This document shows, in pieces, positions 2,957-44,311 of a stretch of DNA of 64,000 nucleotides. Under the pieces are notes generated by a model. That model saw only the letters and a program-made list of their open reading frames with translations, was not told the DNA's origin and searched no databases. This stretch comes from Verrucomicrobiales bacterium. GTDB lineage: Bacteria > Actinomycetota > Acidimicrobiia > Acidimicrobiales > SHLQ01. How positions within the stretch are numbered: the first letter of the stretch is position 1; each line of letters starts with the position of its first letter. The DNA lies in the NCBI GenBank assembly GCA_047638715.1, contig JBLIMK010000003.1, forward strand, positions 17,161-81,160, read 5' to 3'. The position numbers and the translations under genes are program-made.

Positions 2957-3292
2957 TTATGCGGCCAGGTCGTCTTGAGCCCGCTGCAGCAGCTTCGCAA
3001 CCGCTGCCTTCTGGCTGGGCTTGGCCGCCGCCGAAGCAACCACCTCTGTGCGACTTGCCGTGGCGCCGCCGGCCCGGAAGAACCGACGCCGAATTTCGCC
3101 GAAGACGACCACCTCGTCACCCTCTTCGAATCGAAGCGCGAGGCGGGGCGGGTCGTCCCATTGCACCGGAACGGACCGTTTTCCGGCTTCGGTCTGGGTG
3201 GTCACTTCCCAATTCATCACGTTGGTTCCCGATGGCAATGTTCGCTCGACCGGCTCGCTCGACAACGTCCCTTGCAACACGACGATATTCAT
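2957..3292 (-). CDS. ssb: Short single-stranded DNA-binding protein (OB fold, no acidic tail)
   Basis: MNIVVLQGTLSSEP..RTLPSG, GDEVVVFGEIRRRFF, RTEVVA; purine-rich RBS upstream of ATG 3292. Confidence 0.85.
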   Translation of the reverse strand: MNIVVLQGTLSSEPVERTLPSGTNVMNWEVTTQTEAGKRSVPVQWDDPPRLALRFEEGDEVVVFGEIRRRFFRAGGATASRTEVVASAAAKPSQKAAVAKLLQRAQDDLAA

Positions 3293-3346
3293 CGCGGTTT
3301 CCGTCTTTCTTTCTGTGATCGGCAAGGGGAAGTGCGATTTGCATCG

Positions 3347-27038: not shown

Positions 27039-28223
27039 TTACGGGGCCAGCACGTTCATGGCCAGCAACGACTTCTTGTGACACGTTGGCCACTGGCTGA
27101 TCGGCGTGGTCGCCGCCCACCACGCCTTTGCAACCTGGTCTTGAACGCTCGCAGGCACCAAATGAGGAAGTACACCGTCGTACTCAGCAAAGCCCGCGAG
27201 GCGAGCAGCGGCATTCCACGTGTCCGGCAGCCATTGCACACCGCCATAGAAACGATTGCCGGTGTTGATGGCGTGGTTCCCGCCAGATTCGCATTCCAAC
27301 AACGCCGTCAAACCAACGTCTGTGAGGAGCGGCCAACCGAACTTATTAACTCCCTGGGGTGCCTGGTCCGCAGGAACTGCGTTGCCTGTCGGGGGAGCGA
27401 CGTCATCGCCGGGGTCGACCACAGGGGGTTGAGGGTTAACGGGCGCTCCGGTGAAATCGATGTCGCAAAACGTGAGATCGTCACCGTCGTCGATGTCGCA
27501 TTGGTCGCGACCCTTCCCCGCATTGAGAATGTCCGCGCCGGCGTCGCCATCGAGCCAATCGTGACCGGGTCCGCCGAACAATCGGTCGGACCCGTCATCG
27601 CCAGAAACGATGTCGTCCCCTTTGCCCCCTTCGAGACGATCATCACCGGGCCCGCCAGCGATTCGGTCCTTTCCGCGAAGTCCGCGAACGATGTCGTTGC
27701 CTTCGCCACCGAACAATGTGTCGGCGCCAAGGTTGCCGTGAATGAGGTCGTTGCCGCCCTCGCCTGAAATCCGGTCATTTCCGCCGTTGCCTTGGAGCCG
27801 GTCGTTCCCAGAACCGCCAACGATTCGATCCAAGCCCCAGCCGCCTCGTGCTCGATCGTTGCCACTCCCGAGCGTGATGTCGTCGTTGCCGGGCCCACCG
27901 GAGACCCTGTCGTTGCCATCGCCGGCGGTGATGATGTCGTTGCCCGCGCCTCCACAGATCACATCGTCGGCTCCTCCGCCGGTCAAGATGTCGTCGCCAC
28001 CGAAGCCGAGGATGAAGTCACGTGACGCGTTTCCACCGAAGAAGATGTTGTCGGTCTCGTCGCCGATCTGAATCCGATAACCCTTTGCTGTGGCAGTCTC
28101 GATCGTGAGACCAAGACAGAAATCATTCGGCGCCTGCGCGGCTCCAGCAGTACCTGCGCTGAGCGTTGACGCCATGAGGGAGACGGCAACACACACCGCA
28201 TTTCGAGATCGTGAGGTGAACAT
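27039..28223 (-). CDS. Secreted protein: hemolysin-type Ca-binding (RTX) repeats + Rpf-like transglycosylase domain
   Basis: Signal peptide; many GGxGxDxL nonapeptides; C-terminal LECESGGNHAINTGNRFYGGVQW..TW..QWPTC. Confidence 0.88.
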   Translation of the reverse strand: MFTSRSRNAVCVAVSLMASTLSAGTAGAAQAPNDFCLGLTIETATAKGYRIQIGDETDNIFFGGNASRDFILGFGGDDILTGGGADDVICGGAGNDIITAGDGNDRVSGGPGNDDITLGSGNDRARGGWGLDRIVGGSGNDRLQGNGGNDRISGEGGNDLIHGNLGADTLFGGEGNDIVRGLRGKDRIAGGPGDDRLEGGKGDDIVSGDDGSDRLFGGPGHDWLDGDAGADILNAGKGRDQCDIDDGDDLTFCDIDFTGAPVNPQPPVVDPGDDVAPPTGNAVPADQAPQGVNKFGWPLLTDVGLTALLECESGGNHAINTGNRFYGGVQWLPDTWNAAARLAGFAEYDGVLPHLVPASVQDQVAKAWWAATTPISQWPTCHKKSLLAMNVLAP

Positions 28224-31559: not shown

Positions 31560-32381
31560 TCAGTGCTCGGCGGTCACGAAGTCGATCATCTGCTCGACGG
31601 CACCCACCATCGGGATCTCAAGATCGCGGAACGTACTCACTCGGCTCAGGAGGCCTTTCCAGAAGATCCCGGGCTCGCCCGTGGCACCGAAGTGAGCCAT
31701 GACGCCCTTCTTCCATTCGGTACCCATTGGGATGGTCGGCCAAGCCTCGATGCCCGCAACCTCGGGGCGAATGGTCTGCCACACGTCGACGTATGGATGG
31801 CCGACGATCAGCACATCGGGGTTGCTGACCTGGCTGGCAATACGGGACTCCTTCGAGCCGTCGATCAGATGGTCGAGCAGCACCGCGACGCGTCGCCCAG
31901 AACGGGGCCCAAACCGCGACACCCGTTCGACGAGATCGTCGGCGCCTTCCATCTGTTCCACGACCACGCCTTCAACGCGGAGATCGTCACCCCAAACTTT
32001 TTCGATGAGTTCGGCGTCGTGGATCCCCTCGACCCAAATCCGACTCGCCCTCGCCATGCGGGCAGGGATAACGCCCGGATCGACAGACCCCGACGCGGTA
32101 AAACTGACCTCGGGCTCGGTCTCATGAACGGTCGGTGGGCGCAGCGTGATGGGACTGCCATCGACCATGAACGCCCCCGGTCGAGGAACGATGTTGTGAT
32201 CGCGTCCGTGCCGATCACGGATGACGACCAGCTGCGGTTTGAACGAAACGATCGCACCGACCGTGCCCGATGCGCGATGTTCGATCACGACACCCATAGA
32301 TGCGGCCACAGGCGGATACACCGGTTTCGAATGCCGAGGTGCTTCGAGGTCGATGGGTTCGGAGAGAATGCCGTCGCTCAC
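31560..32381 (-). CDS. DUF3097 family protein
   Basis: TASGS, ASRIWVEGIHDAELIEKVWGDDLRVEG, LLDHLIDGSKESRIA, GHPYVDVWQ. Confidence 0.88.
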   Translation of the reverse strand: MSDGILSEPIDLEAPRHSKPVYPPVAASMGVVIEHRASGTVGAIVSFKPQLVVIRDRHGRDHNIVPRPGAFMVDGSPITLRPPTVHETEPEVSFTASGSVDPGVIPARMARASRIWVEGIHDAELIEKVWGDDLRVEGVVVEQMEGADDLVERVSRFGPRSGRRVAVLLDHLIDGSKESRIASQVSNPDVLIVGHPYVDVWQTIRPEVAGIEAWPTIPMGTEWKKGVMAHFGATGEPGIFWKGLLSRVSTFRDLEIPMVGAVEQMIDFVTAEH

Positions 32382-32472
32382 AAGGCCAGACTAGTTGAGC
32401 GCTGGTTGCGGGCTGGGACACCCAAAGGCGGCGCCGCGGCGCCGGTTTGGTGGCCACGAGCGCTCAGGATCG

Positions 32473-32494
32473 TGTCATACCCGAGCAGTAGGTT
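32473..32494 (+). promoter_or_regulatory. RecA-NDp/PafBC-like promoter of the HNH remnant
   Basis: TGTCAT-N10-TAGGTT. Confidence 0.5.
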
Positions 32495-32528
32495 TTTGTT
32501 GATAAACCAACGAACTTCTGGGGCGATA

Positions 32529-32860
32529 ATGCACGACACCATGACCAATACCGACCGCCTGTTGACCATCGACGACGCCGAACTCGACAACATGGCACTC
32601 GAACAGCTCGAGGCATAGATCGCTGGCTTCGCATCGCGGCTCGCCGCCGCCACAGCGCACCGCAAGAGAACTCGTCGCCGGCATCGACGCCCTCACCAAC
32701 ACCGACGAGTCCTGGAACGACGCGACCACACCATGTGCCAATTCCCCGGCTGCGAAGCCGAACACCGGCTCCACGCCCACCACGTCACCCACTGGGTCCA
32801 CGGCGGCAAAACCGAGCTCGCCAACCTCATCTCGTTATGCCACTTCCATCACCGCCTGAA
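32529..32860 (+). pseudogene. Decayed DUF222-HNH endonuclease (13E12-type) gene
   Basis: N-terminal LEQLEA*IAGFASRLAAATA broken by TAG at 32616-32618, then CQFPGC..HAHHVTHWVHGGKTELANLISLCHFHHR HNH motif; most of the gene body is missing. Confidence 0.8.
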
Positions 32861-32874
32861 GCGCCCGCCGGCCA

Positions 32875-32920
32875 CACGGAGTCACGGAGTCACGGAGTCA
32901 CGGAGTCACGGAGTCACGGA
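32875..32920. repeat. 8-bp tandem repeat (CACGGAGT)x5.75
   Basis: Five exact units plus CACGGA. Confidence 0.95.
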
Positions 32921-33045
32921 AACATCGGAATGATCGAGGACCGCGTCCGTATCCATCAGCGAGTGTCCGGCTGAAACTGAGAACGTCTCGATGGGTCATC
33001 ATTCCGGGGATCTCGACGTGAAGTGTCGAGGTGTAGCCTCGAAAA

Positions 33046-34725
33046 GTGATCGGCCGAGTGCTTGGAACTGACGACGCGACGCCATTGCAATTTTGGGTGG
33101 CGATCGCCGAGGGTGGCATGCTGCAGCTCGACGACGTCGTTGCACTCGACCGGGTTCTCCCGACCGGTGAACAGATCTCGATCTACGGCATCGTGAATCA
33201 GGTGCGCGCCCGCCACGAGGGCGCCACTTTTGACAGCGATGTGTTCCTTATCGCCGACGGACTGTTGCCCGCCGAGGTCGCCGAAGCCGCCTTGGTGCAG
33301 GTGACGCGAGTCGTACCCGAGGTCTTTGTTCCCGCGCTGCCTGGCACCCCTGTCCGAATCGCTACAGACGCCGAGCGTGATGCGGCACTCGATTTCGACA
33401 GCGTGGTCCGTCGACTTCCAGCGGGCCTGAGTCGGGAGAACGAACCGATCTACCTCGATCTCGATTTCGTCGATGGAACAAAAGGCGCACACGTCAACAT
33501 CTCGGGCATCTCCGGTGTGGCGACCAAGACGAGCTACGCGACATTTCTCCTCTACTCCCTCTTCAACAGCGGGGTGCTCGGTCGCGAAGCAGCGACCACC
33601 AAGGGCCTGATCTTCAACGTAAAGGGTGAAGATCTCCTCTTTCTCGACTCACCGAACATCGACCTGTCGGCCGACCAAGCCGCCCGATATCAACACCTCG
33701 GCCTCGAGCCTGAGCCGTTTCGCAGCGTCGGGATTGTGGCCCCTCCTCGACGGGGCGACAGCGCAGCGACACCCGCCGTCGGAGCGAGAAGCACGGGGGT
33801 CCTGCCTTTCTTTTGGACGCTCGATACGTTCTGTCGCTCGAACCTCTTGCCATTCCTTTTTGCCGATGCTGAAGACGAACGCCAGCAGTACACGATCGTT
33901 GTGCAATCGGTCGCGGCACAGCTCAACGCCGCCGTGCGTAACGAGCCCTCGCCAGACGGCGCTGTACGACTCGACGGCCAAACCATTCGCACGTTCTCAC
34001 AGCTCGTCGACTTCATCGAGCGAAAGCTCATCCCGGATGACCTCGATGAAAAACCCGACCAGCGATGGACCGGTCGCGCTGTTAGCGGTGGCAGCATCAA
34101 TGCCTTCGTCCGCAGACTCGCGAGCTCGGTCCGACACGTCGAGCACCTGATCCGAGCCGATGTCGACGATGCTCCGCAATACTCTCTCGACCTCGACCGA
34201 AATCAACTCACCGTCGTCGACATTCATCAACTGCACGACCGAGCAAAACGTTTCGTCGTCGGTGTCGTACTTCGACAGGCATTCGACGAGAAAGAGGCCT
34301 CGGGCGTCGCCAAACCTTTGCAGTTCATCGTCCTCGATGAACTGAACAAATATGCGCCGCGGGACTCCTCGAGCCCGATCAAAGAGCTCCTGCTCGACGT
34401 CGCCGAACGCGGACGTTCGCTCGGCATCATCTTGATCGGCGCTCAGCAGACGGCAAGCGAAGTCGAGCGGCGAGTCGTCGCGAACAGCGCAATCCGAGTC
34501 GTTGGGCGATTGGACACAGCCGAGGCCGGCCGAGATCAATATGGCTTCCTCCCGGGAGTACAACGCCAACGAGCAACGATTCTCAAACCAGGCTCGATGT
34601 ACTTGAGTCAACCTCGTCTGCCGATCCCACTCCTGATCGAGTTTCCGTTCCCCTCATGGGCAACACGCAGCGCTGAAGCAGCCCCAACGGTATCCAATTC
34701 CCGCGATCCATTCGAAGGCCTCTGA
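33046..34725 (+). CDS. herA: HerA-family ATPase/DNA translocase
   Basis: N-terminal HAS-barrel-like region, HVNISGISGVATKTS Walker A variant, FNVKGED, IVLDELNKYAP Walker B, ERGRSLG, GAQQ. Confidence 0.88.
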   Translation: MIGRVLGTDDATPLQFWVAIAEGGMLQLDDVVALDRVLPTGEQISIYGIVNQVRARHEGATFDSDVFLIADGLLPAEVAEAALVQVTRVVPEVFVPALPGTPVRIATDAERDAALDFDSVVRRLPAGLSRENEPIYLDLDFVDGTKGAHVNISGISGVATKTSYATFLLYSLFNSGVLGREAATTKGLIFNVKGEDLLFLDSPNIDLSADQAARYQHLGLEPEPFRSVGIVAPPRRGDSAATPAVGARSTGVLPFFWTLDTFCRSNLLPFLFADAEDERQQYTIVVQSVAAQLNAAVRNEPSPDGAVRLDGQTIRTFSQLVDFIERKLIPDDLDEKPDQRWTGRAVSGGSINAFVRRLASSVRHVEHLIRADVDDAPQYSLDLDRNQLTVVDIHQLHDRAKRFVVGVVLRQAFDEKEASGVAKPLQFIVLDELNKYAPRDSSSPIKELLLDVAERGRSLGIILIGAQQTASEVERRVVANSAIRVVGRLDTAEAGRDQYGFLPGVQRQRATILKPGSMYLSQPRLPIPLLIEFPFPSWATRSAEAAPTVSNSRDPFEGL

Positions 34726-34726
34726 C

Positions 34727-35887
34727 ATGGCGGTTCGAGTACTCCACACCTCGGACTGGCACATCGGCAAGACCATCAGAGGGCTGAGTCGGGCCGACGA
34801 GCATCGAGCTGTCCTTGCTGAGGTCGTCGAAATCGCCCGGTCAGAAGCGGTGGACCTCATCCTCGTCTGCGGCGATCTCTTCGAGACATCGGCTCCGACC
34901 GCGGAGTCCGAGTCGATTGCTTGGCAGGCATTACTGGAGCTCGCGGACGTCGCGGGAAACGTGGTGGTCATCGCAGGCAACCACGACAACCCGCGTCGTC
35001 TCGATGCACTCCGAGACCTCATGCGACGCGGGAACATTCACGTCGTCGCAGAACCTCGCCGGCCGGACGACGGTGGTGTCATCGGGCTCGACGTCGACGG
35101 TGTTCGAGTTGAGATCGCGGCGCTTCCGTTCGTGTCGAAACGCGGCATTATCCGTGCGAACGAACTTATGCATGACGCCGCCCACGAACACGCCGGGGTT
35201 TACTCCGATCGGGTTCGATCGATCCTCGCAGCACTCGACGCCGCATGCACGAACGACGCGATCCGAATCATCACCGCTCATGGCTTTGTCCTCGGCGGAG
35301 GCGCAGGCGGCGGTGAGCGACCCGCACATCTTTCCGATGACTATGCGATTCCTGCGCAGGTCTTCCCGGTCGGGGTTTCCTATGTAGCTCTCGGTCATTT
35401 ACACCGGGCGCAGAAAATTCCCGGCCCGACGGCGATCTACTACAGCGGGTCATTGTTGCAGCTCGACTTCGGCGACCCGGATGCGTCGAAGTCGGTCTCG
35501 ATCGTCGAACTCGAAGCCGGGGCCCCAGCTGCCGTCACCCAAGTTCCGCTGACGGCAGGGCGCCCCCTTAGAACGATCGTCGGGACCCTCGATGAACTCC
35601 GGACACGAAAGATCGGCGACGAATGGTTGCGCGTTCGCGTTCGTGAGGCGCGGCGAGCAGACCTCGCTGACGAGGTTCGTACGTTGTTCGGTCCGCAATG
35701 TGTCGACGTGTTCATCGAGGCCCCCATGGTCATCGAGCAACGTGCACGGGAGCTAGTAGCGACGCGCAGCTCGCGCGAGCTCTACGGCGACTACCTCAAC
35801 AGTCTCGGCGTTAATGACACTCGACTCATCTCGCTTTTCGACGAACTTCTGCAGCAACACGTCGAGGGCGCGGAGGACGAGCTCTAG
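34727..35887 (+). CDS. sbcD: SbcD/Mre11-family nuclease
   Basis: LHTSDWHIG, CGDLFE, AGNHD, TAHG, ALGHLH phosphoesterase motifs. Confidence 0.93.
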   Translation: MAVRVLHTSDWHIGKTIRGLSRADEHRAVLAEVVEIARSEAVDLILVCGDLFETSAPTAESESIAWQALLELADVAGNVVVIAGNHDNPRRLDALRDLMRRGNIHVVAEPRRPDDGGVIGLDVDGVRVEIAALPFVSKRGIIRANELMHDAAHEHAGVYSDRVRSILAALDAACTNDAIRIITAHGFVLGGGAGGGERPAHLSDDYAIPAQVFPVGVSYVALGHLHRAQKIPGPTAIYYSGSLLQLDFGDPDASKSVSIVELEAGAPAAVTQVPLTAGRPLRTIVGTLDELRTRKIGDEWLRVRVREARRADLADEVRTLFGPQCVDVFIEAPMVIEQRARELVATRSSRELYGDYLNSLGVNDTRLISLFDELLQQHVEGAEDEL

Positions 35888-38286
35888 TGCGTCCGCTCCA
35901 GCTAGAGATGCAAGGATTTTCAGCATTCCGGGCGCTGACAACGATCGACTTCCGGGACCACGACCTGATCGCATTCACCGGTCCGACGGGTGCGGGGAAA
36001 TCCACGATCATCGACGGAATCGTCTTTGCGTTGTACGGCTCGGTCACTCGGTACGACAACGAGAAGCTGGTTGCGCCGATCATCAACGCGGTGTCCACAG
36101 AGGCTCGAGTTCGGCTCGACTTTGCGGTCGGTGGCGTGGAGTACACCGCAGTTCGGGTCGTCCGACGCACAGCGAGCGGGGCGAGCACAAAAGAAGCCCG
36201 ACTCGAGCAAGGCAACGTGGTGCTCGCCAGCACAGCGCAGGAACTCTCGGCCGAGGTCGAACGCCTTCTCGGGCTGAACTTCACCCAATTCACAAAGACG
36301 GTCGTTCTTCCCCAGGGCGACTTCGCTCGCTTTCTCACCGAGAAGGCGAGCGCCCGCCAACGTCTCCTTCGGCGGTTGCTCGGCCTCGAGGTTTTTGCCG
36401 AAGTTGGCAAAGCCGCTCGGCAGCGCTCGAAGCAGATCTCGTCACAGGGTCATGGGCTCCACCGAGCACTCAAGGACGGGCAACGCGTATCTGAAGATGA
36501 CATCAATAACCTGACCGCCCGGTTGGACGACCTAGCGGGGTCGCTTGCCGAAGTGGAAGCAGCGCAGTCCATCCGCAGCGCTGGCTCCGCAGAACGAGAT
36601 CGCGCACAAATTCTGTTGGACGATCTCGACGCGCAACTCGACGCCTTGTCGCAGCTGACGGTGCCCGGCGAAGCGAAGTCATTCGCTGTAAGCCTGACCG
36701 AAGCAACCAGCACGGTTGCAACGCTCGACAAGCGGCACGCTGCCACGGAAGGAAGGCTCTCATCGGCAATCGAAACCCGAAGCGACCTGCCGTCCACTGC
36801 AGAATCCGATCAGCTCATCGAGATGCACGAAGAAGTAACCGCCCTCGAGGTGGACGTCTCCGCTGCAACGGACGTGCTCGACGCGAGCGAGTCGTCCCTC
36901 ACAAAAGCGATGGCGGCTGCCGAACATGCACGTGGTGCACTCGAACGGGCCGAAGAATCAGCCGAGCGAACAAGGATCCAAGCGGGGGCGCTAGGCATCG
37001 CAGCAACACTGCAACCCGGCGACCAATGTCCGGTCTGCGACCAACCCGTGGGGCACCTTCCACAACACTCGGCTCACGACTCACCTGGCGACGAAGACCC
37101 CGAGCTAGCCGAAGCTGAACGATCGACCGCAGGAGAGCGGACGATCCGTGCGGTCGCCGATCTCCAGCGCGCGACCACAGCACAAGCGGACGCGAACGCC
37201 CGGGCCGAAGCTGCCACACGAGCGGTCGTGGCTCGCTGGGAGAAGCTGGACGGCAGACCAACGCTGGCCCAAGCTCATGTCGGGCGAAAACGAGCGGTAG
37301 CAGCTGACGCCAAGGTTGAGATCGCCCAATCCGCAGTCGATGAAGCGGCGCTCGCTCTTCTCAAAGCCACAAACGAACTCGACCTCATCGAGCGCAGCGG
37401 GGTCGGGCTTCGGCGACAGTTCACGGCGGCGCGAGACGCGGTGGTCGCTCTCGGCCCACCGAAGCCTTCAGAGGAATCGCTACGCGACGATTGGGCCGAA
37501 ATGGTGGCATGGGGGCAGTCTCAGACGACCGATGTTCGTGCTGCTCAACGCGCCAAGACGAAGGAGATCGCAGGAGCCGACAAACGTGTCGCAGCAGCAG
37601 AGTGTCGGATGCTCAACGCGAGCACGTCGTTCTTCGCACCGGGTGTCGAGCCCGTACCGGACCTTGCATCCGCGATGCTCCAGGACGCGCATGCCGATGC
37701 GCGAATCGTGTTGGCGAACGCCGAGGATCGTCGAGCCCGACAACTCTCTCTCGAAGCGCAACTCGCCGAACTCGACACCGATCGAGCGGTCGCCGACGAG
37801 TTGGGCAAACACCTGGCGTCGGGGATGTTCGAGCGTTGGATCATGGCCGACGTCATGATGGATCTTGCAGATCGGGCATCGATTCGACTGAGCGAACTCT
37901 CCGCCGGCGCCTATTCACTCACTACGAACGGGACCGAATTCGAGATCAGAGATCATCGAAACGCCGATGAGGTGCGAAGCGTCCGGACCTTGTCTGGCGG
38001 AGAGACGTTCCTCACGTCGTTGTCGCTCGCGCTCGCGCTTCGCGACAGCATCACCGACCTCGCCTCGACCGCTACCCCACCACTCGAGTCGATGTTCCTC
38101 GACGAAGGTTTCGGCACCCTCGACTCCGAGACGCTCGACATCGTCGCAGCCGCGATCGAAGACCTCGGGGCCTCTGGGCGAATGATCGGCTTGGTGACAC
38201 ACATCCGCGAGCTCGCCGACCGCGTCCCCACCAGATTCGATGTGCAGCGCGGGACGAACGGCTCCACCGTCACCGAAGTGGCATAG
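35887..38286 (+). CDS. sbcC: SbcC/Rad50-family SMC ATPase
   Basis: GPTGAGKST, LPQGDF, CPVC zinc hook, coiled coils, LSGGE, MFLDEGFGTLD, VTH. Confidence 0.93.
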   Translation: MRPLQLEMQGFSAFRALTTIDFRDHDLIAFTGPTGAGKSTIIDGIVFALYGSVTRYDNEKLVAPIINAVSTEARVRLDFAVGGVEYTAVRVVRRTASGASTKEARLEQGNVVLASTAQELSAEVERLLGLNFTQFTKTVVLPQGDFARFLTEKASARQRLLRRLLGLEVFAEVGKAARQRSKQISSQGHGLHRALKDGQRVSEDDINNLTARLDDLAGSLAEVEAAQSIRSAGSAERDRAQILLDDLDAQLDALSQLTVPGEAKSFAVSLTEATSTVATLDKRHAATEGRLSSAIETRSDLPSTAESDQLIEMHEEVTALEVDVSAATDVLDASESSLTKAMAAAEHARGALERAEESAERTRIQAGALGIAATLQPGDQCPVCDQPVGHLPQHSAHDSPGDEDPELAEAERSTAGERTIRAVADLQRATTAQADANARAEAATRAVVARWEKLDGRPTLAQAHVGRKRAVAADAKVEIAQSAVDEAALALLKATNELDLIERSGVGLRRQFTAARDAVVALGPPKPSEESLRDDWAEMVAWGQSQTTDVRAAQRAKTKEIAGADKRVAAAECRMLNASTSFFAPGVEPVPDLASAMLQDAHADARIVLANAEDRRARQLSLEAQLAELDTDRAVADELGKHLASGMFERWIMADVMMDLADRASIRLSELSAGAYSLTTNGTEFEIRDHRNADEVRSVRTLSGGETFLTSLSLALALRDSITDLASTATPPLESMFLDEGFGTLDSETLDIVAAAIEDLGASGRMIGLVTHIRELADRVPTRFDVQRGTNGSTVTEVA

Positions 38287-38349
38287 CTACGCTGGACGGA
38301 TGGGACGAGCCTTCGACGCGATCAGCGGCCAAACGCGATCGTGTGTCAC

Positions 38350-39288
38350 GTGATCTTCGCTGTCGAGGCCTGGGATCCCGACTTTGGAACCGGCGGAGAT
38401 GCCGAGGCGCTCGACGCATCGACGGACGTGGTTCGCGCTGATGTGGAGGTGCCGCTCGAGCAATGGCGAGCAATCCGATCGTCGAGCCCACCGGCCCAGG
38501 GTGTTGTGTATTTCGTCGACGGGGTCAGACGGATCGACGCGCGAATTTGGGTGACCGATGGCGGCAGGGTTCTGCCCGGCTCGTGCGCGACGGTTGCAGC
38601 CGGAGCGGTGGCGTGCACCCCCGGCCGCGCAGAAGTCCGCGATGTTCAGGTTCTGCGCGCGGTGTTCACCCCGCCAGCGGAATCGGCGTCATCGATCGTC
38701 ACCGACGCCGGCGAATACGTTCATGTGGCGGTGAAGACCGGCTCACCCGAAGACCTGTACCTCGGCATTCATGAACAGATGACCGAACTCGAGACCCGAA
38801 CGATCCCTCTCGCGACCTCGGACGATCTGATCGTTTTCGATGGGCCGCTTCGAGGCCGCGCCGTGGAACGAGCGATCGGTTTGATCAAGACGCAGCACGT
38901 GCAATACCTCGACGAGCGCGAGCAGATCGTCGTCAGCGGCCTCGATGAGGGGGAACGTACGCCGTTGTTCGTCATTGGCACGAGTAGGTTTGCCCGTTGG
39001 AGTTGGTATCTCCGGCTTCCGGGTCCTCGGACGCACGGCTGGGCGGGCATCGTGCGATGCGAAATGGCGACCGGCACGCACTTGCCAGTTGGATATCCAG
39101 AGCAAGCAACCGAGCTGGCTGATCTTGTGAGTGCCACGTTGCCCAGGTACGCAAGCGAACCGCACAAGGAGAACCGCGCGCCACAGAACTTGTATCCAAT
39201 CAAGGGACTAGAGCAAGCGCTTCGGCGACGGCTTGGGGATCAACGGCTTTTGCAGCGAGCGCTTCTACGAGCGAGCGCCGAGGCCTAA
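38350..39288 (+). CDS. nurA: NurA-family 5'-3' nuclease
   Basis: FVDGVRRID, VFDGPL, IKT, GERTPLF, RAPQNLYPI..LE..LRRRLGD; last gene of the herA-sbcD-sbcC unit. Confidence 0.8.
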   Translation: MIFAVEAWDPDFGTGGDAEALDASTDVVRADVEVPLEQWRAIRSSSPPAQGVVYFVDGVRRIDARIWVTDGGRVLPGSCATVAAGAVACTPGRAEVRDVQVLRAVFTPPAESASSIVTDAGEYVHVAVKTGSPEDLYLGIHEQMTELETRTIPLATSDDLIVFDGPLRGRAVERAIGLIKTQHVQYLDEREQIVVSGLDEGERTPLFVIGTSRFARWSWYLRLPGPRTHGWAGIVRCEMATGTHLPVGYPEQATELADLVSATLPRYASEPHKENRAPQNLYPIKGLEQALRRRLGDQRLLQRALLRASAEA

Positions 39289-39314
39289 CGAAGTCCAGGA
39301 CGCCCACCGAACGC

Positions 39315-40640
39315 TCAGACTCGACGACAGGTCAGGTCTTCGCGCAGGAGTCCGTCGCGAGCAATCACGATGTAGTTGCCGTTGTCATGGCGAGTGTTGA
39401 GGTATTCAGCTGTAGGACTTCCGGCAAGCCATCGACCGTTTCGTCGGACGTTGTACTTGAACCCGTCACCCGGCGACGCCCACGTCAGCAGATCTCCCTG
39501 TGCCGTGGTCCGCACCGTGCAACCGGTGACGGGTTGTGGTGGTGGTGGGGTTGGAGCCGGCGGAGGCGGTGTAGGCACACCACCACGGTTTCGATCAAAG
39601 AACGGATCGGCCGCGATGCGCCGCGCTGCGTTCAGCGTTGACGTGCTGGAGTCGAGCCACCACGTGCACCCAGCAGTACCTGCTTTCACATCGTGGAAGT
39701 AGAAGACCGCGGCGAACTTGCTCGCGACCTCGGGACGCTTCAGAAACCGTCGGGCATCATCGAGCCATGCTGCCTTTTGGCCAGCGGAGCCCTCGTCGGA
39801 AGCAAACTCAGGGAGTACGAGTTGTTTCGTTGGATGCTGATTTGCGAACTCCATAAAGGGCGTCACAAGGCGCTCGAGTGAGGTCCACGTTTCTTTGTTG
39901 TTGCCGCGGCAGCGGTTCCAGTTATATGGATCGGCCCCGAGGTAATCGACGTACGGGTCGCCGGGGTACCACTTGCCGGCCGACCGGCGGTCGGCGGCGT
40001 TGACCTCGAAGCTCCAACTCGTCATCGTCCAAACCCATTTTACGTCTGCGCCTTGCTGTTCGAAGACCGTGTGGATCTTTCGCCATGCCGCCTTGAAATC
40101 AGCGTAGGTCCCGTACGACTGGCGGTCCTTCGCTTCTGGCTCATGGTGAAATGTCATCCACACCTCGCCGTTGAGGTTTTTCGTCCCACGTGCGAGGGTC
40201 ACCATCTCGTTGTGGATCTTCGACCCGGGTGCGGCGTTGGCGATGGAGCGCCAGGTCAACTCCTGACCGTTGCGACGTTTTGGTTTGACCGAGATCATCA
40301 ACCGGCGGTCGCCGTCGACGACCCAGTTGTTGAGTCGGTTGTCCATCTTGCTATCCCACTTTGAGAAGGAACGAATGATGGGGAGCTTGTCGCCAAGATC
40401 GGATTCGAGGCGCTGAATGGCGCCGATCTGGGACTCGCCTCCGCGAAGCTGAGCGAACGCACCGAAGAGTACGCCGTCGGCCTCGGCTGCTTCGGCCGAA
40501 TCGGACCCTCCGACAGCGGCGCTGGCCAAAAAGAGGGCGACAGCGACGGCGAGCCAGGCGATCATATGAATGAACCGAACGGTGGTGTGTTCACTCTCTG
40601 CGTGCTTTTCTGTCGATGTTTGATCGAAATTGGAGGACAT
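39315..40640 (-). CDS. Secreted GH26-like glycoside hydrolase with Pro-rich linker and small C-terminal beta domain
   Basis: Signal/TM segment, FHHEPE (acid/base), WYPGD..VDYLGADPYN, LPEFA (nucleophile). Confidence 0.8.
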   Translation of the reverse strand: MSSNFDQTSTEKHAESEHTTVRFIHMIAWLAVAVALFLASAAVGGSDSAEAAEADGVLFGAFAQLRGGESQIGAIQRLESDLGDKLPIIRSFSKWDSKMDNRLNNWVVDGDRRLMISVKPKRRNGQELTWRSIANAAPGSKIHNEMVTLARGTKNLNGEVWMTFHHEPEAKDRQSYGTYADFKAAWRKIHTVFEQQGADVKWVWTMTSWSFEVNAADRRSAGKWYPGDPYVDYLGADPYNWNRCRGNNKETWTSLERLVTPFMEFANQHPTKQLVLPEFASDEGSAGQKAAWLDDARRFLKRPEVASKFAAVFYFHDVKAGTAGCTWWLDSSTSTLNAARRIAADPFFDRNRGGVPTPPPPAPTPPPPQPVTGCTVRTTAQGDLLTWASPGDGFKYNVRRNGRWLAGSPTAEYLNTRHDNGNYIVIARDGLLREDLTCRRV

Positions 40641-40754: not shown

Positions 40755-43727
40755 GTGGTTCGCTCACCCTTCCCCCCCGGGTCCCTCCATGCGACGTGGC
40801 TTGGCGACAGCTTCGGTCTATGGATCGACCATCCCGATGCAAGCTCTCGCGACATGCACAACGTCGCGATTGGAATCCTTGGACCGGACCTTCGGCCCAG
40901 CCTCGATGAGCGAACGGCCCGGCACTCCTTGTACCCGGGCCTCCTCCAGCCGCCAGTCGAAGCAATCGATGTCGTCGCCATCGAGCCGAAGCCGCTCGTC
41001 GATCTGCTCATTCGTCGATCGGGCGGTGCGTCGTGGTCTCCCTCCCTCGCCTGGATCCACCAAGCAACACAATCGGCGATCGACATCGCGTCGAGTGGCC
41101 GGGTCGTCCCGGCGCTGCGAACCGCCGGACTCCGATGGCGAGCCGACTGGAACCCTCTCAAAGATGCGACGGTCGACGATGTGGTCTCGGCCCTCACGGC
41201 GGTGTGTCCTCCCGTAGTTCTCGCTGCATCGGATAAGCCAGCGAACAATCAGGTGAGTGGAATCCTCAACACGCTCATCGATGCGGTCTGCCGGGTCGCC
41301 CTCATCGAGGAGGATTGGCGTCCCCCACTCCCGAGGACTCGGGCGAGCAACGTGGTCGCGCTTCGCCGCATTACGACCGCCTTGTCAAGAGCCGACGCGG
41401 TCTTCGTCGCCGACTCGGTGGCTCACGAATCTGCGTTCGCCGAGTGGTCGACCCAACTGAGCGAATTCGCCAGCGTCATCGTCGGCGCACCGGAGGTAGT
41501 GCTCCAAGGTCGCCTCGAGCCACCGGCCGAAGATATGGGCGGGTCCTGGTCGCTCCAGCTAGAAATCGTGCACCCCTCGGGTAAGACGCTCGGATTCAAC
41601 GATGTCTGGCAGGCATCGGGGGCAGCGTTGGAACTGGCCGAAGAAGAAAGCCTCGCTCCGCTACGCACCCGTATGCGCGAGCTCATCGACCGGTTGGCAT
41701 CCCAACTCGCATCATTCGCGCCGCTCGCCGACGAACCTGAGCCAGCGGAGTTGTTGTTGCACGTCGACGAAGTATCGGACCTCCTCACAGACGGTCTCGA
41801 AGCATGTCGTCTCGCCGGCCTCCCGATCGTCACCCCAACAGGTCTCCTCGCCCGATCGGCTCGGCTCACCGCCCGCGCCTCTTCCAGCTCTGGCTTCGGA
41901 GGCTCGTGGGGTCTCGGCGCGGCCGTAATAAACGTCGACTGGGGATTGGCGCTCGGCGACATTTCCTTGACCCAGGAAGAGATTGAAGCACTCGCTCGGT
42001 CGAACGCCGATCTTGTTGCGCTCCGCGGCTCGTGGGTACAGATCGACCATCATCAGATGCGCGCCGCCCTCAACCGGCTCGACACACAACGCCGAGATTC
42101 AAGCGAACTCAGCCCCGCCGAGCTCCTCCGACAGACGATCTCCGAGCTCGAGCAAGACGAAGACAACGATCTAACCGCCGAAGGATGGATCAAAGAACTG
42201 CTGGAAGGTCTTCCTGAAGACCAGCTCACCGAAGCCCTCGAACCACCTGGGTTCATCGGCGAGCTAAGGCCCTACCAACGACGAGCTCTCGGGTGGCTCC
42301 AGTTTCTTGGGCGCCTAGGTCTCGGTGGTTGCCTCGCCGACGACATGGGCCTCGGAAAAACGCCGACCGCCCTCGCCTACCTCCTTGGCCGCAAACTCGA
42401 CCGGGTTACCAACGACCTCCCTCGGCTGCCGCATCTTGTGATCTGTCCGTTGTCGGTCGTAACCAACTGGGAGGCCGAAGCAGAACGTTTCACCCCCGAG
42501 CTCTCGGTCATGATCGCCCACGGCCCAGATCGGCTCCGCGGGCCCCGATTGGTTCGCGCTGCCGCAGAACACGACATCATCATCACCACCTATGGAACCG
42601 CAAGCCGCATAGCAGACGAGCTCGACCCGATTCAGTGGGATGTTGTGGTCTGCGATGAGGCACAGGCCATCAAGAACCATCGGACAAACGCGGCGATCAG
42701 CATTCGAAGTCTGCGGTCGACACAGCGAATTGCACTCACGGGGACCCCGGTCGAGAACCGACTGACCGAACTTTGGGCGATTCTCGATGCACTCAACCCA
42801 GGAATGTTGGGCGGCATCACCTGGTTTCGGGAGACGTTCTCGAATCCGATCGAGAGCGGTGACGGAGCAGACGCGCTCGAATCGCTTCGCCGCCTGACCG
42901 CTCCGTTCGTGTTGCGGCGCACAAAACTCGATCGATCGCTCGTGCCCGATCTTCCAGACAAGATCGAGCAGGTGGCGTGGGCGCCACTCACGCCCGAACA
43001 GGCCGGTTTGTATCAAGCGGTGGTCGACGACTTTCTTACCAATGCCTCAGCCTCAACGGGCATGGAGCGTCGAGGTCTCGTCCTCGCAACCCTCACAAAG
43101 CTCAAGCAGGTATGTAATCACCCCGCACACTTCCTTCGCGACGACACGGTCGGCGAGGCGAACCGTTCCGGAAAGCTCGAACGGTTCGACGAACTGCTCG
43201 AGACCATGCTCGAGTCCGGGGAACGGGCCTTGGTGTTCACGCAGTATCGCGAGATGGGCAAGCTGTTGGCCCACCACGTCGAGAGCCGCTTTGGATTCCC
43301 GGCCCCGTTCCTTCACGGTGGAACGACTCGGACGCAACGAAAGAACATGGTCGATGCCTTCCAAGCCCCGGATGGAGCACCGGTCCAGCTGATATCGCTA
43401 CGCGCTGGCGGCACGGGCTTGAATCTGACCGCCGCGAGCAGGGTCATCCACTACGACCGTTGGTGGAACCCAGCGGTCGAGGATCAGGCCACAGACCGGT
43501 CCTGGCGTATTGGCCAGGACAAAACGGTTTTCGTTCACAAACTTGTGTGCCGAGGGACCCTCGAGCAGCGAATCGACACGCTTCTCACCGAGAAACGTGC
43601 ACTGGCGAACGCCGTCGTCGGGACGGACGAGTCATGGTTGACCGAGCTCTCCACGGATGAACTTCGCGAGCTACTTCGACTCGATCCGTCGGCGCACACA
43701 GCCACGTCCGAGTGGGAGCAAGAATGA
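40755..43727 (+). CDS. SNF2-family helicase (copy 2, HelZ/Rv2101-like)
   Basis: LADDMGLGKT, CDEAQAIKN, LTGTPVENRL, LKQVCNHP, RWWNPAVEDQATDR. Confidence 0.93.
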   Translation: MVRSPFPPGSLHATWLGDSFGLWIDHPDASSRDMHNVAIGILGPDLRPSLDERTARHSLYPGLLQPPVEAIDVVAIEPKPLVDLLIRRSGGASWSPSLAWIHQATQSAIDIASSGRVVPALRTAGLRWRADWNPLKDATVDDVVSALTAVCPPVVLAASDKPANNQVSGILNTLIDAVCRVALIEEDWRPPLPRTRASNVVALRRITTALSRADAVFVADSVAHESAFAEWSTQLSEFASVIVGAPEVVLQGRLEPPAEDMGGSWSLQLEIVHPSGKTLGFNDVWQASGAALELAEEESLAPLRTRMRELIDRLASQLASFAPLADEPEPAELLLHVDEVSDLLTDGLEACRLAGLPIVTPTGLLARSARLTARASSSSGFGGSWGLGAAVINVDWGLALGDISLTQEEIEALARSNADLVALRGSWVQIDHHQMRAALNRLDTQRRDSSELSPAELLRQTISELEQDEDNDLTAEGWIKELLEGLPEDQLTEALEPPGFIGELRPYQRRALGWLQFLGRLGLGGCLADDMGLGKTPTALAYLLGRKLDRVTNDLPRLPHLVICPLSVVTNWEAEAERFTPELSVMIAHGPDRLRGPRLVRAAAEHDIIITTYGTASRIADELDPIQWDVVVCDEAQAIKNHRTNAAISIRSLRSTQRIALTGTPVENRLTELWAILDALNPGMLGGITWFRETFSNPIESGDGADALESLRRLTAPFVLRRTKLDRSLVPDLPDKIEQVAWAPLTPEQAGLYQAVVDDFLTNASASTGMERRGLVLATLTKLKQVCNHPAHFLRDDTVGEANRSGKLERFDELLETMLESGERALVFTQYREMGKLLAHHVESRFGFPAPFLHGGTTRTQRKNMVDAFQAPDGAPVQLISLRAGGTGLNLTAASRVIHYDRWWNPAVEDQATDRSWRIGQDKTVFVHKLVCRGTLEQRIDTLLTEKRALANAVVGTDESWLTELSTDELRELLRLDPSAHTATSEWEQE

Positions 43728-44311
43728 GGCGGCCACTTCGATCCGACGAAGCGCGAGCTATCGCGAACATTGCCATCGATCTCGGTGATCCGGGCCGAAT
43801 GGCCAAGGCGCGTCGCGTACACCGATCAAACGGTGTGGGCGAGGTCGACATTTCTGGCGGTATCGCGGAAGCAACGGTGACCGATGCTGATGGTGAACTG
43901 CACGACGTCCAAGTCACGATTGAATTTCCCCCGGTCAATGGACCCATCCCCGCGTCCAGCGATCTACGAACGAGTTGTGTATGCGACGACCAAGGCGACA
44001 CCTGCACCCATGCGTTAGCAGCGCTGCTCGGCATTGCTGAGGCCGTCGAGGCCAACGGCCGACTGCTCGACCTCTGGACGGGAAGTTCTGCTCCAACGAC
44101 ACCGGTCGGTCCGTACTCGTCACCTTCAGACGATCAGCAGGCATTCTTCGAAGGTGCGTGGTCCGCGTCGATCGCGATACCAAAACTCGTCCCGATCCGA
44201 TTCGACCAGGCCCCTGCACTCGTCGTCGATGAAGTCGATGCAGGCCCTGTAGTCATCGATGCGATCGCGGCAATCGGGTCTGGGCTCAGGCAATACCGAG
44301 CTCAGCAATAA
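43724..44311 (+). CDS. SWIM zinc-finger protein coupled to SNF2 copy 2
   Basis: GRMAKARR, CVCDDQGDTCTHALAALL (CxC-x5-CxH); ATGA overlap. Confidence 0.85.
   Translation: MRRPLRSDEARAIANIAIDLGDPGRMAKARRVHRSNGVGEVDISGGIAEATVTDADGELHDVQVTIEFPPVNGPIPASSDLRTSCVCDDQGDTCTHALAALLGIAEAVEANGRLLDLWTGSSAPTTPVGPYSSPSDDQQAFFEGAWSASIAIPKLVPIRFDQAPALVVDEVDAGPVVIDAIAAIGSGLRQYRAQQ

Follow-up and report, generated by a model that had tools for sequence, protein, structure and literature searches.

A herA-sbcD-sbcC-nurA operon in an ice-dwelling actinobacterium probably encodes a damage-response DNA-end processing machine of bacterial-type parts

In the Sulfolobales, herA, mre11, rad50 and nurA form a single operon (PMC13748450). 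In Deinococcus radiodurans, nurA and herA make up a two-gene operon with sbcCD located elsewhere (PMC5448004), while in Oceanithermus profundus, according to a single-genome note on this member of the Deinococcota, sbcD-sbcC lies downstream of herA in the order nurA-hepA(herA)-sbcD-sbcC (Blesa et al. 2017, PMC5448004). Here we describe herA-sbcD-sbcC-nurA, four plus-strand open reading frames (ORFs) spanning 33046-39288 of a 64,000-nucleotide stretch of contig JBLIMK010000003.1 (the window), which belongs to the metagenome-assembled genome of an ice-dwelling member of the Acidimicrobiales (3.64 Mb, 169 contigs, 93% complete). The Sulfolobales operon has the same four roles in the same order with the same tight co-directional packing, but its proteins are not orthologous to those of the window, whose host is a mesophilic or cold-habitat bacterium. 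Unlike in D. radiodurans, herA and nurA bracket sbcD-sbcC, and unlike in O. profundus, nurA stands last. Judged from sequence, the locus is probably a chromosomal operon for a damage-response DNA-end processing and resection machine made of bacterial-type parts, working beside an AdnAB-like enzyme and Ku. Its genes are the following:

33046-34725, plus strand: herA, predicted bacterial (Deinococcus-type) HerA hexameric ATPase/translocase; 559 aa, GTG start
34727-35887, plus strand: sbcD, Mre11-family nuclease subunit; 386 aa, ATG start
35887-38286, plus strand: sbcC, short Rad50/SbcC-family ABC ATPase with CPVC zinc hook; 799 aa, GTG start
38341-39288, plus strand: nurA, bacterial-type NurA nuclease with an RNase H-like fold; 315 aa, GTG start

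The locus is real, intact and was rightly named in a preliminary description of this DNA; it lies well beyond chance, because the same four genes stand in the same order on a single strand in 54 of 80 related loci (the best 80 of at least 565 HerA relatives). Seventeen of the 80 end at a contig edge before the set could be complete, and nine lack at least one gene despite remaining DNA; among these nine, L040 and L063 have no NurA within 3.8 kb, in L036, L039 and L052 sbcC is followed by an additional gene of about 545 aa and then by the contig end, and in the other four (L038, L062, L066 and L088) herA stands by itself. The apparent gaps in L022, L059, L065 and L086 are artefacts of partial SbcC matches, the ORF ends showing compact loci. 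Packing in the window is as tight as previously stated at the first two junctions (a 1-nt gap between herA and sbcD, a 1-nt overlap between sbcD and sbcC), whereas the third gap, between sbcC and nurA, is 54 nt and not about 60 nt. The GC content of the operon (0.61-0.63) is like that of the remaining window, with no anomaly. A scan of 32300-39500 found no convincing plus-strand terminator inside or after the operon, and 0 sites matching the Sigma-70 consensus.

HerA shares full-length homology with a solved bacterial HerA, chain B of the D. radiodurans complex (PDB code: 7f6d; Yang et al. 2023, PMC9960219), over residues 2-544 of the query and 15-600 of the chain (phmmer, E=1e-144); the alignment takes in the N-terminal HAS-barrel region and, together with that paper, makes a HAS barrel likely in HerA. 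No Pfam family matches the protein at E<=0.01 and there is no meaningful NCBIfam match, the curated models of HerA/DUF87 type included; the profile libraries overlook the bacterial HerA clade, and its membership rests on the PDB homolog. A sequence search of the PDB (phmmer) found no archaeal HerA chain. The Walker A sequence GISGVATKTS (residues 154-163), which the preliminary description had taken for an unusual form with an insertion, is a family trait, being identical in D. radiodurans HerA and invariant across orthologs: all 100 have G154, S156, G157, A159, T160, K161 and T162, and 99 have V158. The same 100 orthologs all keep K161/T162, E195/D196, the Walker B pair D431/E432 and R496, and 99 keep R439. 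The P-loop, the Walker B DE and the arginine fingers are those of D. radiodurans HerA, with K161/T162, D431/E432, R439 and R496 aligned to its K175/T176, D487/E488, R495 and R552, and E195 to the catalytic acid. In D. radiodurans HerA, K175/T176 contact ADP and Mg (PMC9960219). By analogy with that structure, HerA would form a hexameric ring, act as a DNA-dependent ATPase/translocase and bind a NurA dimer.

NurA passes the Pfam NurA family (PF09376) marginally, with 22.0 bits against a cut-off of 21, and matches D. radiodurans NurA (7f6d_H, 2.5e-22) and Thermotoga TM1739 (PDB code: 1zup, 3e-4) by phmmer. Its AF2 model, built from a 38-ortholog alignment (pLDDT 89.9, pTM 0.88), bears out the fold on which the preliminary description had staked its reading of the fourth gene: the top Foldseek matches are NurA chains, namely 7f6d_G (E=1e-18, TM 0.69) and 1zup_A (2.6e-14, TM 0.70), while Sulfolobus NurA 2ygk_A (6.8e-6, TM 0.45, 12% identity) is a match of fold only. 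All 38 orthologs share D60-G61, E151, D167-G168 and E291, and the two DG motifs align with those of D. radiodurans NurA; E151 and E291 are putative catalytic residues. The model opens with a beta-strand (residues 5-9), which fits the dimerisation element of bacterial-type NurA, the N-terminal strand being typical of the bacterial protein and present in the homologous D. radiodurans NurA of the same fold (PMC9960219). The D. radiodurans chain has 369 residues, compared to 315 aa here, and the host phylum differs.

SbcD scores 178 bits with TIGR00619 (cut-off 77.65) and 51 bits with Pfam Metallophos, and its phosphoesterase residues D10, H12, D50, N85, H86, H185, H224 and H226 are invariant in 67 of 67 orthologs. 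SbcC exceeds the cut-offs of Pfam AAA_23 (73.7 bits), SMC_N and SbcC_Walker_B; it stays under that of TIGR00618 (241.9 against 478.5 bits) because the protein is short, about 250 aa less than the 1043-position model. K38, Q143, C381/C384, S703-E706, D739/E740 and H772 are conserved in 46 of 46 orthologs, so that the Walker A, Q-loop, signature, Walker B and H-loop, together with the C381-P-V-C384 hook, confirm a split ABC ATPase head, with a coiled coil predicted between the two halves. Both the length of 799 aa and the CPVC hook (residues 381-384) had been recorded correctly, as had the intactness of the catalytic motifs, whose residues are kept in the ortholog alignments of all four proteins. 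The short form is one of two size classes among SbcC orthologs (35 at 778-826 aa, the window type, and 10 at 946-971 aa); three further ORFs in the list are broken or fused. No second SbcC was found in the host genome (93% complete), the operon copy being the single match. The archaeal models do poorly on the window proteins, with no Mre11 model above 57 bits (cut-offs 434.6-600) and no Rad50 model above 59 bits (cut-offs 700-1000), and the bacterial SbcD and SbcC models outscore them. The term "archaeal-style" holds for the gene order and fails for the parts, as SbcD and SbcC score as bacterial and HerA and NurA are of the Deinococcus type.

Within the genus, a strong HerA ortholog is present in 22 of 24 genomes, with weak FtsK-like matches only in G017 and G022; outside it, strong orthologs occur in 4 of 16 other families of the order. 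The flanks are kept at genus level, with a DUF3097 gene in 11 loci and an SNF2 helicase gene in all 4 loci with enough DNA. At the level of the phylum (400 species genomes plus the window's own, 401 in total), HerA was found at E<=1e-30 in 91 genomes, the NurA profile in 88 and SbcD in 127. The HerA count includes G000 and the weak, paralog-like G180 and G219; with these left out, 88 HerA-bearing genomes served for counts of gene order. In 78 of them sbcD lies at most 5 kb downstream of herA. The window's order, herA-sbcDC-nurA, occurs in 30 (HerA mostly 59-68% identical to the window's), nurA lies immediately upstream of herA in 46 (43-58% identical), and the arrangement is contig-split or otherwise unclear in 12. 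Eleven of the 88 genomes are unpublished (G041, G058, G088, G159, G187, G213, G265, G278, G307, G375 and G430); their removal leaves 26, 40 and 11 genomes in the three classes, with sbcD linked to herA in 67 of the 77. All 20 loci sampled among the published nurA-first genomes read nurA-herA-sbcD-sbcC, the order of the O. profundus cluster. The linkage that the preliminary description needed is conserved in relatives, by the 54 related loci as by the 78 HerA-bearing genomes, and these Actinomycetota counts contradict the claim of a 2026 review that no such synteny exists in bacteria.

In a midpoint-rooted HerA tree without an outgroup, all 80 herA-first sequences form a single clade (support 0.49), which groups with 11 nurA-first sequences (support 0.995), the other 9 nurA-first sequences being sister to these. 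The herA-first order probably arose within the Actinomycetota from nurA-herA-sbcD-sbcC by relocation of nurA, and not by import from archaea; because the HerA tree has no outgroup, this derivation is one that we infer.

Linkage of this kind bears on whether SbcCD and HerA-NurA are mere neighbours that work independently and are clustered for shared regulation only. The nurA-herA genes of D. radiodurans and Thermus, which have no adjacent sbcCD (PMC5448004), would fit this, as would the several loci that tolerate unrelated genes between herA and sbcD, such as those for FtsX, a transposase, an MPG synthase or a luciferase-like protein. The persistence of sbcD behind herA across two gene orders, the junctions in the window of 1-nt gap and 1-nt overlap, and a reported interaction of archaeal Mre11 with HerA (PMC2288612) speak for cooperation instead, and we regard independent action as very improbable. 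Structure prediction adds a modest argument on the same side: a HerA-SbcD complex, predicted with ortholog alignments made here as input, scored 0.52 compared to 0.00 for the best control, with at least 89% of contacts in agreement between runs and a pLDDT of at least 80 for the partners. Of 157 solved complexes, 116 passed the mark for a contact, as did 2 of 215 mismatches, and scores of up to 0.60 hold only 18 of the 157 solved complexes together with both passing mismatches; the model thus lends weak support to a contact of HerA with SbcD.

Departures from the common layout were seen in several related loci. The extra gene of about 545 aa stands directly after sbcC in L036, L039, L043 (L043:13549-15228), L046 and L052, which form a sub-clade; its product starts with a hydrophobic N-terminus and matches no Pfam family, the copies are 62-79% identical to each other, and in L043 and L046 nurA lies about 2.5 kb past sbcC. 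Solitary herA genes that retain the promoter box described below occur in L038, L062, L066 and L088, the one in L066 being followed by an AlkZ-like DNA glycosylase gene. In L032:14978-17410 the NurA frame extends to 811 aa, which may be a fusion or a missed stop, and in G004:C300:2-1635 the HerA match falls into two adjacent pieces, possibly by a frameshift or an assembly error. A conserved partner gene between herA and sbcD was considered and rejected, the inserted genes being mutually unrelated. Culturable carriers of the system include Dactylosporangium aurantiacum NRRL B-8018 and Salinilacustrithrix flava EGI L10123.

The evidence that ties the operon to DNA damage lies upstream of it. The mycobacterial PafBC motif is tGTCgg(N10)tA(N3)T (PMC8635444), and the sequence GTC-N12-TAnnnT, with the same bipartite build of a -26 'tGTC' and a -10 TAnnnT element at the cited spacing, was found ahead of herA in 31 of the 77 loci with the window's order, compared to 0.7% of 8000 background windows. 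The consensus of these sites, TGTCAC(A/C)CCCC...TAnnnT, differs from the mycobacterial tGTCgg in its first element. A position weight matrix (PWM) trained on the herA-upstream boxes of relatives was applied to the host genome with the reversed sequence as control, giving 16 matches and 1 control match at 18 bits or more, and 10 and 0 at 20 bits or more. Strong boxes precede recA, rmuC, UPF0102/yraN, a comM-like ATPase gene and an SSB-family gene; they also precede a DNA methylase gene, two Y1 transposase-like genes and an HNH-bearing DUF222-like gene (L101), as well as genes of two unrelated enzymes, an acyl-CoA dehydrogenase and UbiA. The host genome contains pafA-pafB-pafC. The nurA-first loci, which took no part in the training, gave a similar picture: 9 of 20 score at least 14 bits, compared to 5 of 3000 control windows, GTC-N12-TAnnnT is present in 18 of 20, and the best match lies 31-50 nt before nurA in 19 of 20. 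An SOS box of the LexA type (GAAC-N4-GTTC) was rejected as a feature, having been found in 1 of 76 regions upstream of herA. On motif evidence, damage control of the operon family is well supported, and the predicted PafBC regulon extends beyond the mycobacteria. To our knowledge, the mycobacterial PafBC regulon as described does not include HerA, NurA or SbcCD. For the O. profundus cluster, the available text of PMC5448004 describes no promoter or regulon.

The matches outline a putative PafBC-type regulon of the Acidimicrobiia, with the box TGTCACACCCC...TAnnnT on contigs C148, C2, C14, C25, C47, C48, C101 and others, that includes some ORFs of unknown function. A small SSB-family gene in the window (2957-3325, minus strand; Pfam SSB, 29 bits) has its box at 3368-3347 on the same strand (19.6 bits).

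For the window copy the situation is less simple, and the features upstream of herA are as follows:

32473-32494, plus strand: PafBC/RecA-NDp-type box TGTCATACCCGAGCAGTAGGTT; 18.6 bits with the PWM; 552 nt upstream of herA and facing it
32496-32927, plus strand: DUF222/HNH ('13E12-like') gene remnant; in-frame TAG at 32617-32619, internal deletion, HNH motif at 32733-32927
33034-33039, plus strand: -10-like hexamer TAGCCT; 6 nt before the herA GTG

The remnant, of which a short N-terminal piece is read in frame-0 and which scores 28.5 bits with Pfam HNH (cut-off 21.4), separates herA from the divergent DUF3097 gene as an insertion and stands outside the machine; same-genus loci have 50-110 nt between these two genes and no such insertion. 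No DUF222 protein of the host genome matches it at E<0.01 (tblastn). No terminator-like site was found on the plus strand between the box and herA, and transcription from the box may read through into herA. The hexamer is a candidate promoter element: of the 11 same-genus upstream regions that were aligned, 9 have a TAnnnT 6-7 nt ahead of the GTG of herA, in 6 cases TAGCCT. Its position suggests that the transcript has no leader or a very short one. The 3' end of the remnant contains, at 32875-32919, about five 8-nt units in tandem (CACGGAGT).

A different role, that of a defence module in which HerA-NurA and SbcCD destroy incoming linear phage or plasmid DNA without repairing the chromosome, had been offered in the preliminary description as an alternative, and some likenesses invite it. 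The NurA model resembles a chain of the TdpAB complex (8wfd_G, Foldseek E=7.9e-5), and TdpAB is a defence system; the HerA C-terminal part gives weak matches, of at most 35 bits, to the PADLOC HerA and mad8 models; and the next-but-one downstream gene, kept within the genus, encodes an SNF2 helicase with strong ZorD/DpdE-like similarity in PADLOC (409 bits). The PADLOC matches of HerA, however, are all partial and limited to its ATPase core, and neither NurA nor the other neighbours match any PADLOC model. The SNF2 protein belongs to no Zorya or Dpd gene set and is closest to the SCO1167/SCO6262 helicase family (NCBIfam, 693 bits against a cut-off of 1200). The operon is near-universal in the genus with conserved flanks, holds the only SbcCD of the genome and shares its promoter box with recA, which is not the context of an island. 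Defence is an unlikely reading, and damage-response end processing is much better supported. The SNF2 helicase gene lies at 40755-43727 (plus strand) and is followed by a small ORF without a family (43712-44311, plus strand).

We propose that the machine unites SbcC-SbcD, of the Rad50/Mre11 family, with a HerA hexamer of the Deinococcus type and a dimer of NurA. From what the family is known to do, SbcCD would recognise and clean a double-strand end. The HerA ring would then thread the duplex, driven by ATP, into the NurA dimer docked at the HAS-barrel face, and NurA would cut mainly the 5' strand and leave a 3' tail for RecA, as homology to the D. radiodurans proteins suggests. DNA damage would switch the operon family on through the PafBC-type promoter. 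This agrees with the overall reading of a four-component end-resection machine in the preliminary description, which has been upheld both by the fold of NurA and by the linkage of the genes.

The host genome also encodes Ku and an adjacent AdnAB/AddAB-like pair (1075 and 1133 aa) with PD-(D/E)XK in both proteins and a UvrD motor in one; RecC (PF04257) was undetected in this 93% complete genome. Since the AdnAB-like pair and Ku are in the same genome, the operon would supply an additional machine and not a replacement.

Several observations weigh against damage-induced resection by this operon. In the host genome the PWM matches in the 16-18 bit band are unenriched (9, compared to 10 in the control), and the sites before xseA, a uvrD-like gene and a DEAD-helicase gene, which fall in this band, are individually insecure. 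Same-genus loci lack a box beside herA, L011, L013, L014 and L015 all scoring below 7 bits, and damage induction of the window copy is uncertain because its box lies 552 nt off and belongs to the HNH remnant. The AdnAB-like enzyme could do the main resection. Bacterial HerA-NurA is not simply protective, since the Deinococcus and Thermus knockouts gain resistance: in D. radiodurans a double knockout of nurA and herA raised resistance to far-UV and mitomycin C about 10-fold (PMC9960219), and inactivation of nurA and herA brings UV resistance in Thermus, by the title of the paper. The monophyly of the herA-first clade, in the tree described above, is weakly supported.

Some of these points would suit a machine that acts mainly on replication or segregation structures, such as hairpins and reversed or over-replicated forks, or that pumps DNA at division or transfer, and not in general resection. 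SbcCD is best known for the cleavage of hairpins and protein-blocked ends, and HerA is a member of the FtsK-HerA pumping ATPases; both properties would serve such a role. The knockouts in Deinococcus and Thermus are unlike resection-deficient strains, the AdnAB-like and Ku pathways are already in the genome, and the HerA-like TdtA of Thermus works in DNA donation, by the title of PMC5365140. Opposed to this are the promoter motif, which ties the operon family to a damage regulon, and the D. radiodurans complex, which in vitro resects the 5' strands at the blunt ends of duplex DNA (PMC9960219); the locus content gives no hint of transfer genes. We consider a role mainly in replication or segregation improbable and keep to damage-response end processing as the probable function.

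A wider version of this proposal is put forward more tentatively: in about a fifth of actinobacterial species, the operon may provide a PafBC-controlled, damage-induced third resection pathway besides AdnAB/RecBCD, in which SbcD docks on the HerA ring to make a four-protein machine and the Sulfolobus-like gene order is convergent. If true, the coupling of Mre11-Rad50 with HerA-NurA would be an ancient functional unit shared across domains, rather than one peculiar to archaea. In the Actinomycetota the HerA-NurA pair is almost always joined to SbcCD, usually with a damage-response box; the linkage, the box and the culturable hosts make the cooperation of Mre11/Rad50-type with HerA/NurA-type proteins directly testable in bacteria. 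A literature search found no paper on HerA/NurA in Actinobacteria or on a link to PafBC, in agreement with the earlier remark that the system is uncharacterised in this lineage; Iyer et al. 2004, Constantinesco et al. 2004 and Cheng et al. 2015 (J Bacteriol) may bear on priority.

Two minor observations concern the surrounding DNA. DNA runs labelled 'ice metagenome' contain window positions 32400-39300; besides the possible source, three runs contain at least half of the sampled words, and the runs listed include none of RNA. The window also encodes, at 27039-28223 (minus strand), a protein that has a transglycosylase-like domain and eight matches to RTX calcium-binding repeats.

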